This document shows, piece after piece, positions 36,001-45,000 of a stretch of DNA of 64,000 nucleotides; position 1 is the stretch's first letter, and each line of letters opens with the position of its first letter. This stretch comes from an archaeon (lineage in GTDB: Archaea; Nanobdellota; Nanobdellia; Woesearchaeales; GCA-2686295), in the NCBI GenBank assembly GCA_043822105.1, contig JBDRCD010000015.1:16443-80442 (forward strand), given 5' to 3'. The position numbers were made by a program.

Positions 36001-39000
36001 CAGGTGTTAATTTGGTTCTCAATCTTATTCTAATTCCCTTATTTGGTATTGAAGGCGCAGCAATTTCAACAACCATAAGTTATATTTTGATTTGTTTTCT
36101 GTCCATTAAAGAATTAACAAAAATAATGAAATTTAAAGCTCCTTGGGTGGACTGGGCAAAAACCATTGTCAGTGGAGTAATATTCGTTCTGTTAATAATA
36201 TTATTAAGAAAAATTTTAGTAATGAACCCTTGGATAGAATTATTTTTAATACTGTTTATTGCAGGAATTATTTATTTAATTTCAATATTTTTCTTCAAAA
36301 TAATAACCTTTTCTGAATTTAAAAATATTAAGAACACTTTTTTTAATATAAAATAGATTTAAGATTTATTCGATGATTTTTGAATCTTTCAGCATTTTCT
36401 TTAGATATGGATGAAAGTTCTTTTCTATTTTATCAAACCATCTATAGTTTTCAGAAGTGTTATCAATTTTTATTTGAGGATTATCATCTTTTGGTTTTGC
36501 AAGAAAACATACACTCACTCCATGAGTTCCTGTTTTCAAATCAGGATAAATGCCTTTGTCAAAGAAAAATTCATACACTCCCAGAATTTTTTCAACTTTT
36601 ATTTCAAAACCTACTTCCTCAACCGCTTTACTTTTTATTCCGTCTTCAAGTTTAATATTTTTATGAAGTCTTCCACCAGGCACCCACCATTCATTCTTAG
36701 CAGGTTCTTCTTTTCTTTTAACAAGCAAAACTTTTCCGTTTTGATGTATAATTACATCTGTACAGCAAAGAGGCATAGTTTCAAGAATCTTCTTATAATC
36801 TTTTTCAGGTATTAAATTCATTTTCAATAATTTATGTACAAGAACTTGTGTTTTTCTTCATAATCAATGTATCTTTTCTTTAGTTCTTCAAGATCATATT
36901 CAATCATGAGTTTAACAAGTTCATTGAATTTCATAGTTGGTGTCCAGCCAAGTTTTTCTTTTGCTTTTTTTGGATCTCCAATTAACATTTCAACTTCAGC
37001 AGGTCTGAAAAAGGCAGGATTTATGTCCACAAGAATTTTTCCTGTTTTTTTCTCAACACCTTTTTCTTTTATTCCGTGGCCTTTCCATTGTATTTCTATT
37101 CCAATATTTTTGAAGGCCTCTTCAGTGAATTCTCTAACACTATGGCTTTCTCCTGTGGCTATTATGAAGTCTTCAGGTTTGTTATTTTGCATCATCATCC
37201 ACATTGCTTTCACATAGTCTTTTGCATAGCCCCAATCCCTTTTTGCATTGAGATTCCCCAAAGATATTTTTTCTTTGAGTCCGAGTTTTATGGCTGCAAC
37301 TGCTTTAGTTATTTTTTTGGTTACAAATCTGTCGCCTCTTCTTTCTGATTCATGATTAAAAAGAATTCCGTTACAGGCAAAGATTCCATATGTTTCTCTG
37401 TAGTGTTTGACCATCCAAAAACCATAAAGTTTTGCAATCGCGTAGGGACTTACCGGATTAAAAGGAGTTTCTTCATTCTGTGGATACTCCTGGGCTTTGC
37501 CAAATAATTCGCTTGTTGAGGCCTGATAGAATTTAGTTTTTTTCATATTCAGCTCTCTTAAGAGTTCCAATATTCTTAGAACTCCAATCGCATCACAGTT
37601 GGATGTATATTCAGGTATTTCAAATGAAACCTGAACATGACTCTGGGCTGCAAGATTATATATTTCATCAGGGTTAACTTTAGGAATTATTTTTGCCAGA
37701 CTGCTTGAATCAGTCATATCACCATAATGAATGTGCAAATTTTTTCTTAGTTTTACATCATCATATATTTCTTTTAGTCTTTCTCTGTTAAAACTGCTTG
37801 ATCTTCTTACAATTCCATGAACTTCATATCCTTTTGACAAAAGAAATTCAGCCAAGTATGACCCATCCTGTCCTGTTATACCGGTTATAAGAGCTTTTTT
37901 CATTAATTATCATCCCCAATAGTATCTTTTATTACTTGACATACTCGAGAAACTTCTTCTTCTTTTAAAATATTTCCCATAGGCAGACTTATTATTTGTG
38001 AGGCTAAAATTTTTGAATTGGGAAAAGAATCTTTGAAAATCTTTTTATGGTGGGGCTGTTCATGAGTAGGAATCCATGAAATTCTGTTTCCAATTTTATT
38101 TTTATCCAGTGATTTTATCAGTTTTTTCTGTTGATCTGTTTTTACAACTATATTAAATATCATATATGGATGCTTTGTAACATATTTAGGTATTTCTTGA
38201 TATTTAACTAAATTTTTCAGTTCATTTTTGTATTGGTTGGCAAGTTTGTTTCTCCAGTCTAAATATTGGTTAATTTTTTTAAGCTGAACTCTGATTATTG
38301 CAGATTGTATATCTGTTATTCTAAGATTTAAACCAAAATAGCTATGAACAAATTTTTGTTTCATACCGTGATTTCTCAAAAGCAGACATTTTTCTGCAAT
38401 TGTTTTATCAGATGTTAATATGCATCCTCCTTCTATGCCTGCTGCAAGTTTAGCCATGTGAAAACTAAGAATGCTTGTATGATTGAATGACCCGATTTTT
38501 TTATTTTCATACTCTGCTCCGATCGCTTCAGCAGCATCTTCTATTATGATTATGTTTTTTTCTTTTGCAAGTTTTAAGAAACCATTCATATCCACTGGCA
38601 TTCCTGCAACGTCGACAGGCATTATTGCTTTTGTTTTTTTGGTAATTGCTTTTCTTACAATTTCAGGAGTTGTATTGAAAGTTTTCAAATCACAATCAAC
38701 CAATACGGGTTTAGCCCCCACGGCTAAAATAGCATTGACTGAAGCAATGAATGTAAATGTAGGAACAATAACTTCATCTCCATAACCAACTCCGTGAGCC
38801 ATTAAAGCAGCAATCAAAGCAGAAGTTCCATTGTTGACAACAACCGCGTATTTGCAACCAATGTACTTACAAATTTCAGATTCTAATTTTTCTGTTTCTT
38901 TGCCTTGAGTCATCCAACCGGAATCAATTATTCTTTTGGCAGCTTCTTTTTCTTCAGAACCCATGTCCGGCGGTGACCATTCAATTTTGTTCATTTATTT

Positions 39001-42000: not shown

Positions 42001-45000
42001 GTTGCCAATTGATTTTCCATATATGACCATGTCTGGTTGAACACCATATTTCTCATAGGCTCCACCCACGTTTATTCTAAATCCAGATGTTATTTCATCA
42101 AAAATAAGAATGATACCTTTTTCTTTTGTAATCTTTCTTATTTCTTCTAAGAATCCTTTCTTTGGTTCTTTGTATCTTATTGGTTCCATTATCACAGTGC
42201 CGACATCATTATTTTTATCAAGAATTTTTTTAAGAGCATCAAGGTCATTGTATTCAAAAGGAATTGATGATCCTTTTAGATTTCTTGGAACTCCTTTTGG
42301 TTCAAGTCCGGGTAATAAATGTCCATCTAAATTTTTATCATCACCTAGATTCGCAGACAAATACCAATCACTCCAACCATGATAACCGCAGAATGCCACT
42401 TTATCTTTATTTGTGAATGCTCTTGCAATTCTAATTGCGACTGCAACAGCCTCTCCGCCAGTCTTAGCATATCTGACCATTCCTGCCCAAGGGTGTAATT
42501 TCAAAAATATATTTGCTAATTCTATTTCTTCAGGACAGTTAAGAGTTGTCATGGTGCAATCATCAACAGCTTTTTTTACGGCTTTATTTACTTCTTCATC
42601 AGAATAGCCTAAAACGCAGGCTCCGACACCCATTATACTCATATCAATTAGTTTGTTTCCGTCAAGGTCTTCTATAATAACACCTTTGGCTTTCTTATAG
42701 TAGGATGGCCACTGATCTGGAAGAAACATCTCTGATCTTTTGGAGAGTAATTGTGATCCACCAGGAATTATCTTCTTTGCTTCATTCCATAGTTTAACAC
42801 CTTTTTTTGTATTCATTTCTTTTTCCTCTTTTTAAGCCATTTCATTATGGCTTCTATAATTATAAAATCCATTTCTTCGTCTATTTCAAAAGAATTATAC
42901 CTTTCAACTTCATAGGGAATTGTCTTATCATGATAGAATGTTTTTCTTTTTTTCATGCTGCTGACTTTGGAGATATACAACGTTCCTTCTGGAAAAAATG
43001 TGTCTGTCAAATCCTGTCTTCTTATGTGTGCAATTTGTTTACCCTTGTATGGAACTATAAATCCTTTTTTCTTAACAAACGCAAGCATTGGATTATATTG
43101 CTCTGCTTTTACAAACCCAACAATTGATTCTGCTTTCTTGTTATTATTAAGCATAATTATTGCTTTTTCTATATCTTTGGAAGTTGTCATGGGAGAAGTT
43201 CCTTCCAACATAACAATTAAATCATAGGTTTCTCCTTTCTTCTCAAAAAAGTTTATTGCGTGAAGTAAAACGTTTATTGATGAAGCTTTATCTGTTGCAA
43301 GCTTTGCAGGTCTCATAAAAGGCACTTCAGCACCCTGCTTCCTTGCAATTTCAGCAATTTTCTTGTCGTCTGTGGAAACAATAACTTTGTTAATAAGTTT
43401 GCAACCAAGGGCAGCCTTTATTGGATAGTCTATTAGGGGTCTTCCTAGTAATTTCTTAATATTTTTTCCAGGAAGGCCTTTAGAACCCCCTCTTGCCGGA
43501 ATAACTGCTATAATTTTCATGTTGCACCCCCTATAAGATATTGTCTGTTTATTTAAAAACTTAATGCTTATTATTAGAAACTTTTTTAAATTTGATAGAT
43601 TTCAAAAAATTATGTTAAGCTCAAGATTCCTTGACGATAAAAAGCCAGCTATTGCTTTATCTAATTCTCAATTAAAAAACAAAAAAATAGTTGAAAAGAA
43701 AATTACTGATGGTATTTATAAGTTTGAAAAAGTTAAATGTGCAATTTGTAAGAGCGAAAATTTCAAAACACTCTCAAAAAAAGATAGACACGGTTTATAC
43801 TCTTCTTTTGTTATTTGTAAAAATTGTGGTTTAATTCAGATTAATCCAAGAATGGACCAGAAGAGTTATAATAATTTTTATAATGATGAGTATAGAAAAG
43901 TCTATAGCGAAACTGGAAAACCTGCCGATAGATTCTTTCGAAATCAAAGATTCACAGGAAAACTTATCTATGATTTAATAAGATCCAAATCCAACAAAAA
44001 CATTAAAAATTTGTTTGTGGTTGAAGTTGGAACAGGTGCAGGGGGAATTCTCCAATATTTCAAGGAAAAAGGAAATCTTGTTTATGGTGTAGATTTGGGG
44101 ACGCAGTATATTTCTTTTGGAAAGAAAAAAGGATTAAATTTAGAAACCGGCACAATTAAAAATGTTCTTAAGCTAAATAAAAAAGCAGACATAATAATAT
44201 ATAGTCATGTTTTTGAACATATTCTTAATCCAATGGATGAATTGAAAGTGATTCGTAAATGTTTAAAGAAGAACGGTCTTCTTTACATTGAAGTTCCTGG
44301 TGTGAAAAATTTGTTGAATAGTTATGGCCAAGATTTTTTAAAGTATCTTCAGAACGCTCACACATACAACTTTTCTTTGACAACTCTTAATAATTGTTTG
44401 CAGCAGGAAGGATTTGAAATGCTTTATGGTGATGAATATATTAAATCAATATTCATAATTGGTAAAAAGAAAACAATTTACACAAATGATTATTTCAAAG
44501 CTTTGTCTTTTTTGAACTATTTAGAAGATTTAAGATTAAAAAGATTTAGTTTTCAGAAACTTAAATTGAAATTAAGAAGTCTTTTTATACAAACTTTGAA
44601 AAAAACAAAGACTTTTGAATTATTTGTTAGGATGTATAGAAAATTACACACTTAATTTTGTTCTTGTTTGTTTTTGAAAATTATTTTTTTTATGGACTGC
44701 ATCATTCGTTCAAGTTCTAAACCATCACATTTGTAGCAGTAAAGATCCAAGAATTCTTTCCTTTTTTCCTTTAATTCCTCGTTCTTCTTTTTGTCATACA
44801 AATAAATTTTCACTGCTGACAAAAGTTCCTCGCCAGTTTTAACTTTTATCACGCAATCACTTGTTTTATGAAAAACGCCTTCTTTATCGATTATTTTTTT
44901 AGGATATAACCCTATGAGAATAGTTGTTTTACCCATAATATTTGCTTCCCAAAGAGTTGTAGAAAAAACAGATATAAACAAATCACATTTATTTATTAAT

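Follow-up and report, generated by a model that had tools for sequence, protein, structure and literature searches.

A 64-kb stretch of archaeal DNA (contig JBDRCD010000015.1, positions 16,443 to 80,442; hereafter the window, whose coordinates are used unless another locus is named) carries an eight-gene operon at 36366-43520 that is predicted to make a nonulosonic acid from guanosine diphosphate (GDP)-mannose. Judged from its genes and from related loci, the substrate of the NeuB-family synthase in this operon is likely to derive from GDP-mannose through a GDP-mannose 4,6-dehydratase (Gmd), a DegT-family aminotransferase and an N-acetyltransferase. The product would most likely be a cytidine monophosphate (CMP)-activated 9-deoxy, 7-acetamido nonulosonic acid with a hydroxyl group and not nitrogen at C5. 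To our knowledge, the characterised bacterial 9-deoxy routes all start from uridine diphosphate (UDP)- or GDP-N-acetylglucosamine (GlcNAc) and give 5,7-diamino sugars.

A sequence-only reading of this DNA had proposed the GDP-mannose route, with a NUDIX hydrolase closely matching GDP-mannose mannosyl hydrolase (Gmm) as the sugar-releasing enzyme. The route gained comparative support, but the closeness of the NUDIX protein to Gmm did not stand. That reading had also called the route undescribed, and searches of open-access full text gave no account of a nonulosonic acid being made from GDP-mannose or by way of perosamine; a large phylogenetic study of nonulosonic acid synthases makes no mention of a GDP-mannose route. 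Literature on Brucella and Yersinia was considered as a precedent for NeuB with gmd or perosamine and was rejected as a false match, the term being absent from the main text.

Organization of the operon

The eight minus-strand open reading frames (ORFs) were all found where the sequence-only reading had placed them, with the tight coupling it had described (Table 1). Each product has a strong match to the family it had been assigned to, and the motifs that had been quoted are present, namely GITGQDG (residue 8) and NHES (residue 183) in Gmd and PGGRLHK and NYRW in the NUDIX protein. With the start codons of the public annotation, the junctions in transcription order are +4, 0, +4, -2, +4, +1 and -2 nucleotides (nt), where positive values are overlaps. 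This annotation gives a NeuB of 365 amino acids (aa) (P0001), starting 3 codons after the start of the 368-aa ORF, and a NUDIX protein of 151 aa (P0121). With the TTG starts of the longest ORFs, the overlap is 13 nt between the short-chain dehydrogenase (SDR) and NeuB genes and 4 nt between the Gmd and NUDIX genes. The eight-gene set is a translationally coupled operon.

Table 1. Genes of the operon, neighbouring genes in the window, and TIM-barrel genes at other NeuB loci (coordinates of the respective locus).
Feature	Locus	Position	Strand	Supporting match or remark
Cytidylyltransferase, NeuA/PseF/ElaB-like, 235 aa, first gene	Window	42813..43520	-	PF02348 (CTP_transf_3) 1.3e-31
Class III (HemL-like) aminotransferase, 437 aa	Window	41503..42816	-	PF00202 (Aminotran_3) 7e-46
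ElaC-like SDR, 253 aa	Window	40741..41502	-	adh_short_C2 6e-50
NeuB-family synthase, 365 aa (TTG 40744) or 368 aa (TTG 40753)	Window	39647..40753	-	PF03102 1.2e-77
PerB/PglD-type N-acetyltransferase, 217 aa	Window	38991..39644	-	PglD_N + Hexapep
DegT-family sugar aminotransferase, 363 aa	Window	37903..38994	-	PF01041 2.9e-110
GDP-mannose 4,6-dehydratase Gmd, 359 aa	Window	36824..37903	-	TIGR01472 560 bits
Gmm-like NUDIX hydrolase, 151 aa from ATG 36821, last gene, candidate GDP-sugar hydrolase	Window	36366..36827	-	PF00293 5e-12
Wzx/MurJ-type flippase, convergent with the operon	Window	34860..36356	+	PF01943, PF13440; position homologous in L001
534-aa protein	Window	44652..46256	-	No Pfam match; 33% identical over 531 residues to an L092-cluster neighbour
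257-aa protein	Window	47098-47871	-	No Pfam match; 46% identical to an L092-cluster neighbour
Asparagine-synthase-like amidotransferase	Window	47942-49897	+	58% identical to an L092-cluster neighbour
TIM-barrel gene	L003	6929-7819
TIM-barrel gene	L005	11747-12616
TIM-barrel gene	L092	14204-15052
TIM-barrel gene	L093	9043-9900
TIM-barrel gene	L094	6131-6991
TIM-barrel gene	L078	11645-12505
TIM-barrel gene	L034	11045-11908

Gmd, aminotransferase and acetyltransferase

The dehydratase was assigned firmly to the Gmd family. It scored 560.3 bits with the Gmd equivalog TIGR01472 (cutoff 415), compared to 107.8 bits with the LegB model TIGR04180 and 108 bits with the model for deoxythymidine diphosphate-glucose dehydratase, and STSE (residue 129) and YAIAK (residue 154) are further motifs. 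Its earlier description as a bona fide Gmd therefore holds, and it falls outside LegB and PseB. Since the dehydratase is Gmd and not LegB, C2 of the sugar would bear a hydroxyl group and not an N-acetylamino group.

The DegT aminotransferase scored below the PseC and LegC cutoffs. In a PDB search, GDP-perosamine synthase (3BN1/3DR4, 201 bits) ranked third, after a scyllo-inositol transaminase (241 bits) and QdtB (223 bits), and PseC and PglE scored 156 and 124 bits. The enzyme has its pyridoxal-phosphate lysine motif SFHMAK at residue 177 and is predicted to be a Per-like C4 aminotransferase of GDP-4-keto-6-deoxymannose. The acetyltransferase scored 203 bits with the NeuD/PglB/VioB model TIGR03570 (cutoff 161) and has an EHD motif at residue 142. 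Its best solved relative is the perosamine N-acetyltransferase PerB (4EA7, 123 bits), with PglB at 100 and PglD at 87 bits. By these matches it belongs to the PerB/PglD class, and its substrate is a prediction. The perosamine-type steps suggested earlier thus agree with both enzymes, GDP-perosamine synthase being among the best matches of the one and PerB the best solved relative of the other.

GDP-N-acetylperosamine is synthesized by Gmd, Per and PerB in Caulobacter crescentus and Escherichia coli O157, where a gmm-like gene is found in the cluster. The window has Gmd and a PerB-like acetyltransferase in common with this pathway, together with a DegT aminotransferase that has Per among its best matches, and a Gmm-like NUDIX gene beside gmd is also familiar from it. 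However, those bacteria transfer the sugar directly by glycosyltransferases, whereas the window genes are coupled to NeuB and a cytidylyltransferase in a conserved linkage. Because Gmd, Per, PerB and gmm can make GDP-N-acetylperosamine on their own, the coupling between Gmd and the synthase is the central question.

The NeuB clade and its linkage to Gmd

NeuB has the domain and motifs of a nonulosonic acid synthase (PF03102, 261 bits; AEAGVNH, KFQ, SDH, EKHFT and RTGSG, all invariant across its clade). It scored below the equivalog cutoffs for Neu5Ac/legionaminate synthases (NeuB_NnaB TIGR03569, 317 bits, cutoff 399.65) and for PseI (TIGR03586, 240.8 bits, cutoff 340.25). The tree puts it in a separate clade. 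Other members, at 46-64% identity to the window NeuB, are from Hod-, Thor- and Lokiarchaeota, Woesearchaeota, Thermoplasmatota and Parcubacteria. Nine further genomic contexts of this clade were examined, one of them a 4-kb contig with a partial match. A metagenome scan with a single protein gave two loci.

Locus L001, a relative with conserved flanks, carries genes for a GFO oxidoreductase, cytidylyltransferase, SDR, NeuB, acetyltransferase, DegT, Gmd and NUDIX protein, and its Gmd is 68% identical to that of the window. The Lokiarchaeota locus L003 has DegT, Gmd, NeuB and acetyltransferase genes, with a TIM-barrel gene (PF01261) and a cytidylyltransferase gene alongside. L005 has NeuB, acetyltransferase, TIM barrel, DegT and Gmd with PMM and ManC adjoining, and it also contains a second, separate NeuB-NeuC-NeuA set. 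At L094, the content is cytidylyltransferase, TIM barrel, DegT, Gmd, formyltransferase and NeuB. Here a formyltransferase (9204-9977) stands between Gmd and NeuB instead of the acetyltransferase, as in N-formylperosamine pathways, so that the predicted sugar would be N-formylated but otherwise the same. With 551-561 bits, the L003, L005 and L094 dehydratases exceed the Gmd equivalog cutoff. The P0006 and P0025 loci are similar in content, their Gmd-like genes being assigned by Pfam only.

Two details of these loci are recorded separately. The L001 Gmd gene (12827-13921) is called as two ORFs of 107 and 252 aa, a pattern of a frameshift or pseudogene or of an assembly error. An Epimerase_2 gene at L003 was considered as a hydrolysing epimerase and rejected, as it had no match to the NeuC model and only a weak match to a glycosyltransferase domain.

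The linkage was compared to a background of 80 NeuB loci among the matches listed by a genome scan with the clade alignment; these matches, at 34-45% identity, are general NeuB loci and not relatives. A true or Gmd-like dehydratase was located within 10 kb of NeuB in 7 of the 9 clade contexts, compared to a true Gmd in 2 of the 80 general loci (Fisher p = 1.8e-7, with relatedness ignored). One of these two is L078 from Candidatus Anammoxibacter, which has NeuB, acetyltransferase, TIM barrel, Gmd (443 bits), DegT, class III aminotransferase, cytidylyltransferase and SDR genes. The L078 cluster (8775-19824) is near the window in gene content; its Gmd and DegT carry N-terminal extensions of about 113 aa, and a SIS-CBS protein and an extra hexapeptide acyltransferase are also encoded there.

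The gene order differs between lineages, being DegT-Gmd-NeuB-acetyltransferase, NeuB-acetyltransferase-TIM barrel-DegT-Gmd or DegT-Gmd-formyltransferase-NeuB, which argues for selection on the linkage. DegT and the acyltransferase co-vary with the type of dehydratase. In the Gmd-type loci, DegT is 53-67% and the acyltransferase 53-60% identical to the window proteins, compared to 34-37% for DegT and 38-45% for the acetyltransferase in L092 and L093, where the dehydratases are LegB-like or of another type and the L092 aminotransferase is LegC-like. NeuB is 48-55% identical in both types of locus. No other hexose-supply genes were found in any Gmd-type cluster. The shuffled order, the ManB/ManC pair at L005, the formyl exchange at L094 and the lack of another hexose supply together argue that the Gmd module feeds the synthase. 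The tie between Gmd and NeuB that had been proposed from the window was thus seen again elsewhere, as Gmd, DegT, an acyltransferase and NeuB are also linked in archaea of the Asgard and other groups, and in an anammox bacterium.

The nucleotide-release step

Some nucleotide-removal step is obligatory before condensation with phosphoenolpyruvate (PEP), and the NUDIX protein is the sole hydrolase in the operon. The usual release enzymes were not found: no NeuC/LegG-like gene (tblastn, two NeuC-like queries) and no TIM-barrel homologue was found in the 64-kb window, and no PseG-type domain was found among the window ORFs scanned with Pfam. Since the C2 configuration of mannose is already the required one, a hydrolysing 2-epimerase would in principle be dispensable.

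By NCBIfam, PDB and Foldseek searches, Gmm is the nearest characterised relative of the NUDIX protein. The best NCBIfam match is Gmm PRK15434 and the best PDB sequence match is Gmm 1RYA (E 9e-13 over residues 6-132, 24-28% identity); the L001 orthologue scored 52 bits with PRK15434. Foldseek with the NUDIX model, which has a predicted local distance difference test (pLDDT) score of 94.6, placed Gmm at the top by E-value with a template modelling (TM) score of 0.60-0.65, and by TM-score other Nudix enzymes fit as well, so that no separation was obtained. The NUDIX protein shares with Gmm (NudD/WcaH of E. coli, 1RYA) the N-terminal segment, PGGR..K and YRW. The Gmm ligands Asp22, Arg37, Gly50, Arg52 and Glu70 are all kept, and none of them varies in the alignment of the archaeal family.

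A profile search of 1.84 billion proteins gave 157 members of this NUDIX family at E < 1e-30. Two of them are fusions, P0142 (562 aa) to a nucleoside diphosphate-hexose C-methyltransferase (Methyltransf_13/14) and P0171 to a cytidylyltransferase-like domain. The P0142 fusion links the family to nucleotide-deoxysugar metabolism. The family has a near-canonical box, GGRxxKNExLxxAxxRKAxEEVG, whose EE pair is absent from Gmm. Three other members have His at the position of Gmm His124, and Gmm His88 is replaced by Phe in the window protein. L081 was considered as a second case of a NUDIX gene in such a cluster and was rejected; it is a conventional PseB-like/NeuC cluster, and its NUDIX protein has no similarity to Gmm.

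Several observations weigh against a release role of the NUDIX protein, and with them the close match to Gmm claimed earlier was not sustained. Its score of 62.1 bits is far from the curated Gmm cutoff of 146. The Gmm general base His124 is changed to Ser, and Gln123, Tyr103 and Arg65 are changed to Thr, Gly and Ser. Among 15 family members, the window protein alone lacks the Glu and Arg of the Nudix box (Ile and Ser at residues 58 and 66), which the L001 orthologue retains. The RKAxEE box of the family fits an attack at phosphorus, which would give a sugar-1-phosphate and not the substrate of NeuB. The three closest homologues on long contigs (53-55% identical) stand alone, close to genes for SRP54, AspRS or inositol-phosphate synthase; glycosyltransferase genes are nearby, and neither NeuB nor a true Gmd was found within 10 kb of them. 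In O-antigen and colanic acid clusters, gmm adjoins gmd without being a step of the pathway.

Among the examined contexts of the NeuB clade, only the window and its sister L001 have a NUDIX gene within the cluster. These two branch together in the NeuB tree, nested among clade members that all have the TIM-barrel gene, and the linkage of the NUDIX gene to the cluster therefore counts as one evolutionary event, also to its disadvantage. The other eight contexts carry the TIM-barrel gene and no NUDIX gene. The presence of a NUDIX gene where others have a TIM barrel looks like a non-orthologous replacement. The score below the Gmm cutoff, the loss of the catalytic His, the homologues outside clusters and the single linkage event together make a release role only plausible. 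We regard the NUDIX protein as a candidate nucleotide-release enzyme with a chance slightly under even; cleavage could be at C1, as in Gmm, or at phosphorus.

The TIM-barrel gene encodes an uncharacterised xylose-isomerase-like protein and is usually directly beside NeuB (examples in Table 1; there are others). Among the matches listed, NeuB loci of at least 12 kb were counted for both genes. A NeuC/LegG-like gene without a TIM barrel was present in 40 loci, a TIM barrel without NeuC/LegG in 16, both in 1 (L005, which has two synthases) and neither in 9. The TIM barrel and NeuC/LegG are thus almost perfectly mutually exclusive across NeuB loci, and the TIM-barrel-linked synthases form coherent clades in the tree. 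The sole PDB match of the family is MJ1311 (E 1e-5), and no NCBIfam match was found except weak ones of the L094 copy, far below the cutoffs. TIM-barrel enzymes of this superfamily are described as acting with GFO oxidoreductases to cleave glycosidic bonds by beta-elimination after oxidation at C3 (PMC10628242). By analogy, this chemistry suggests a way in which a nucleotide could be removed. The TIM-barrel protein may therefore replace the hydrolysing 2-epimerase or nucleotidase step. Its gene stands in the place of NeuC at about one quarter of the sampled NeuB loci, which may be the more general discovery.

Cytidylyltransferase, SDR and class III aminotransferase

The cytidylyltransferase scored 176 bits with the PseF model TIGR03584 (cutoff 206), and its best solved relative is 6IFD (137 bits). 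The nearest model of the class III aminotransferase is PRK06209 (286 bits, cutoff 486). The SDR scored 311 bits with PRK09186 (cutoff 255) and 223 bits with PtmA (cutoff 350), and its best solved relative is 6UH2 (161 bits), the next SDR having 119 bits. The structures 6UH2 and 6IFD served as search models for ElaC and ElaB (PMC13656337). From crystal structures and docking of ElaABC of Acinetobacter baumannii KL49, ElaB is assigned the synthesis of CMP-legionaminic acid, ElaA (GFO/IDH/MocA family) the oxidation of C8, and the SDR ElaC the reduction of the 8-keto group to the 8-epimer (PMC13656337).

By published residue numbers and not by alignment, 13 of 14 named ElaC residues are in register in the window SDR (Y88, Y94, S141, Y143, I152, Y153, M160, P161, Y164, K168, Q201, F205 and Y209), and the likeness to ElaC is drawn on these numbers. 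The window shares with ElaABC the adjoining of cytidylyltransferase and SDR and the same best PDB relatives, and the full layout is found in L001. It differs in having a class III aminotransferase instead of ElaA, and no GFO/IDH/MocA oxidase of the ElaA type was found in the window (tblastn, two GFO queries). A GFO gene accompanies those for the cytidylyltransferase and SDR in L001, L005 and L093; in the window and in L092 the class III aminotransferase stands in its place. This exchange suggests amination instead of epimerisation. Homologues of the aminotransferase also adjoin NeuA in L011, L043, L048, L074 and L078.

L092 encodes a CTP_transf_3::Aminotran_3 fusion (7103-9157), whose aminotransferase half is 66% identical to the window enzyme, and in L093 CTP_transf_3 is fused to an SDR (6309-7829). 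These fusions place the aminotransferase and the SDR at the stage of the CMP-sugar, so the two enzymes probably tailor this intermediate. Since the L092 sugar should already bear nitrogen at C5, the aminotransferase is more likely to target C8 than C5. The simplest reading, held tentatively and at less than even confidence, is the conversion of the C8 hydroxyl group to a keto group and then to an amine. The earlier assignment of the SDR and class III aminotransferase to tailoring was refined accordingly: the SDR is ElaC-like, and both probably act on the CMP-sugar.

A precedent for such a conversion is Kdo8N of Shewanella, for which KdnB oxidises a hydroxyl group in the terminal region of a 2-keto-3-deoxy acid and KdnA then transaminates it. 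The enzyme families differ from those in the window, KdnB being a metal-dependent alcohol dehydrogenase and KdnA a DegT-type enzyme. We know of no genes assigned to the 8-amino sugar of Flexibacter maritimus. This sugar is a natural 8-amino nonulosonic acid (PMC3210612).

Proposed pathway and alternative explanations

The pathway would start with Gmd converting GDP-mannose to GDP-4-keto-6-deoxy-D-mannose, which DegT would aminate at C4 to GDP-perosamine. The PerB-like enzyme would then N-acetylate GDP-perosamine, and this is the best-supported of the predicted steps. Removal of the nucleotide, with the NUDIX protein as the sole candidate within the operon, would give free 4-acetamido-4,6-dideoxy-D-mannose. 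NeuB would condense this sugar with PEP to 7-acetamido-3,7,9-trideoxy-non-2-ulosonic acid, the 5-hydroxy analogue of legionaminic acid. The cytidylyltransferase would form the CMP-sugar, which the ElaC-like SDR and the class III aminotransferase would tailor, most likely from a C8 hydroxyl to a keto and then to an amino group.

In Campylobacter jejuni, legionaminic acid is made from GDP-GlcNAc by LegB, LegC, LegH, LegG, LegI and LegF. The window shares the logic of this pathway (GDP-hexose, 4,6-dehydration, C4 transamination, N-acetylation, nucleotide removal, PEP condensation and CMP activation). The free sugar would in both cases be 6-deoxy-manno-configured, and the window NeuB scores higher as NeuB/LegI-type than as PseI (317 vs 241 bits). 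It differs in having Gmd instead of LegB, no LegG/NeuC in the 64 kb and a NUDIX gene in the operon. Kdn has the 5-hydroxyl group in common with the predicted product. The Kdn routes condense mannose-6-phosphate or mannose with PEP and involve no Gmd, aminotransferase or acetyltransferase.

The derivation of the NeuB substrate from GDP-mannose is the likely part of this scheme, and the whole chain with the NUDIX protein as release enzyme is nearly, but not quite, an even call. Some points count against the scheme in general: every step is predicted from sequence; ManB/ManC was not found in the 64-kb window, which is itself part of a longer contig; and a LegB-like dehydratase and a LegC-like aminotransferase accompany other members of the NeuB clade (L092 and L093, the two non-Gmd-type members with known context), so the clade is not specific to a 2-hydroxy substrate. 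If the GDP-mannose route holds, the NUDIX protein could still be a Gmm-like housekeeping or pool-regulating hydrolase, with the release enzyme, for example a TIM-barrel homologue, encoded elsewhere. The stand-alone homologues near glycosyltransferase and housekeeping genes, the lost catalytic His and two lost Nudix-box residues, the eight clade contexts lacking a NUDIX gene and the common gmd-gmm pairing in bacteria all favour this, but no TIM-barrel, NeuC-like or other candidate lies within 64 kb. Moreover, at the end of the operon only 2 nt separate the Gmd stop codon from the NUDIX start (or the two genes share 4 nt), and the lineage with the NUDIX gene is precisely the one without the TIM-barrel gene. 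We consider this explanation unlikely.

It is more improbable that the operon joins two unrelated modules, one making GDP-N-acetylperosamine for a glycosyltransferase and the other a legionaminic- or pseudaminic-type acid from a hexose supplied elsewhere. Gmd, Per, PerB and gmm are a known self-sufficient set, PerB is the top match of the acetyltransferase, the surrounding locus is a large, mixed glycan island that also encodes a heptose pathway and several glycosyltransferases, and the same NeuB clade works with LegB/LegC-like enzymes in L092. Against these stand the recurrence of the linkage across distant lineages in rearranged form, including NeuB between Gmd and the acyltransferase, and the lack of alternative hexose-supply genes in the Gmd-type clusters. 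L005 also keeps a separate NeuC-NeuB-NeuA set for its second synthase, and Gmd beside NeuB is rare in general (2 of 80 loci among the matches listed). An ordinary 5,7-diamino product would require the SDR and aminotransferase to turn the hydroxyl group at C5, or at C2 of the hexose, into an amine, as an alternative entry to legionaminic-type acids. An oxidase with an aminotransferase is the right chemistry for this, and the ElaC residues proposed to hold the 5-N-acetyl group are conserved in the window SDR, which counts weakly against a 5-hydroxy product because they come from a docking model. However, L092 has the same cassette with LegB/LegC-like enzymes and a sugar that already bears nitrogen at C5, L001 has GFO in the place of the aminotransferase and matches the C8-epimerase layout of ElaABC, and the operon has no second N-acyltransferase. 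This explanation is very improbable, and the 5-hydroxy, 7-acetamido acid from GDP-mannose is the preferred product.

Window setting and neighbouring genes

Other products encoded in the window are a PEP carboxylase of archaeal type, a PAN-like AAA ATPase, FEN-1 and Trm5/TYW2. NeuB is 100% identical to a protein labelled 'MAG: archaeon', and both observations support the archaeal host named by the sequence-only reading. No transfer RNA genes were found in the 64-kb window.

Around the operon extends a large island of surface-glycan genes, which encodes a flippase, a heptose pathway and several glycosyltransferases and methyltransferases. The Wzx/MurJ-type flippase probably belongs to the same glycan locus as the operon. 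Three other neighbours in Table 1 match genes at L092, which has the same aminotransferase/SDR cassette with a different dehydratase. Speculatively, the 534-aa protein is a candidate transferase for the sugar of the operon, and the 257-aa protein and the amidotransferase could possibly tailor the aminated sugar further.

An ADP (adenosine diphosphate)-heptose-type set occurs in this archaeon at 56491-59598 (also 53451-54470), with a GmhA-like SIS protein, an HldE-like kinase/nucleotidyltransferase, a family 9 heptosyltransferase and a nearby epimerase/dehydratase. Three ORFs of 491, 471 and 330 aa at 10836-13711 and 31300-32292 have no Pfam match. A carbamoyltransferase of the NodU/CmcH type lies at the edge of the glycan island (61843-63612).

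Biological meaning

The operon is predicted to follow the logic of legionaminic acid synthesis with GDP-mannose in the place of GDP-GlcNAc. Its first half would be of the perosamine type, and its last genes would be ElaABC-like with the oxidase replaced. This prediction is directly testable, because the eight proteins are small and soluble. The operon may belong to a widespread, uncharacterised class of pathways that make nonulosonic acids from GDP-mannose in Asgard and other archaea and in candidate-phyla and anammox bacteria, although we hold this broader view as possible and on balance somewhat doubtful. Their products would be 5-hydroxy, 7-acylamino and 9-deoxy, here also 8-amino, and release would be by enzymes new to this step, a Gmm-like NUDIX protein in this lineage and a TIM-barrel protein in most others.

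If true, the product would represent a new class of sugars that combines features of Kdn and legionaminic acid. The specificity of the synthase, the nucleotide-removal step and the C8 amination of a CMP-sugar would be new activities. As sugars of the cell surface, nonulosonic acids influence how viruses, immune systems and neighbouring cells recognise a cell, and the finding would mean that such sugars are displayed by Asgard and other uncultured archaea.

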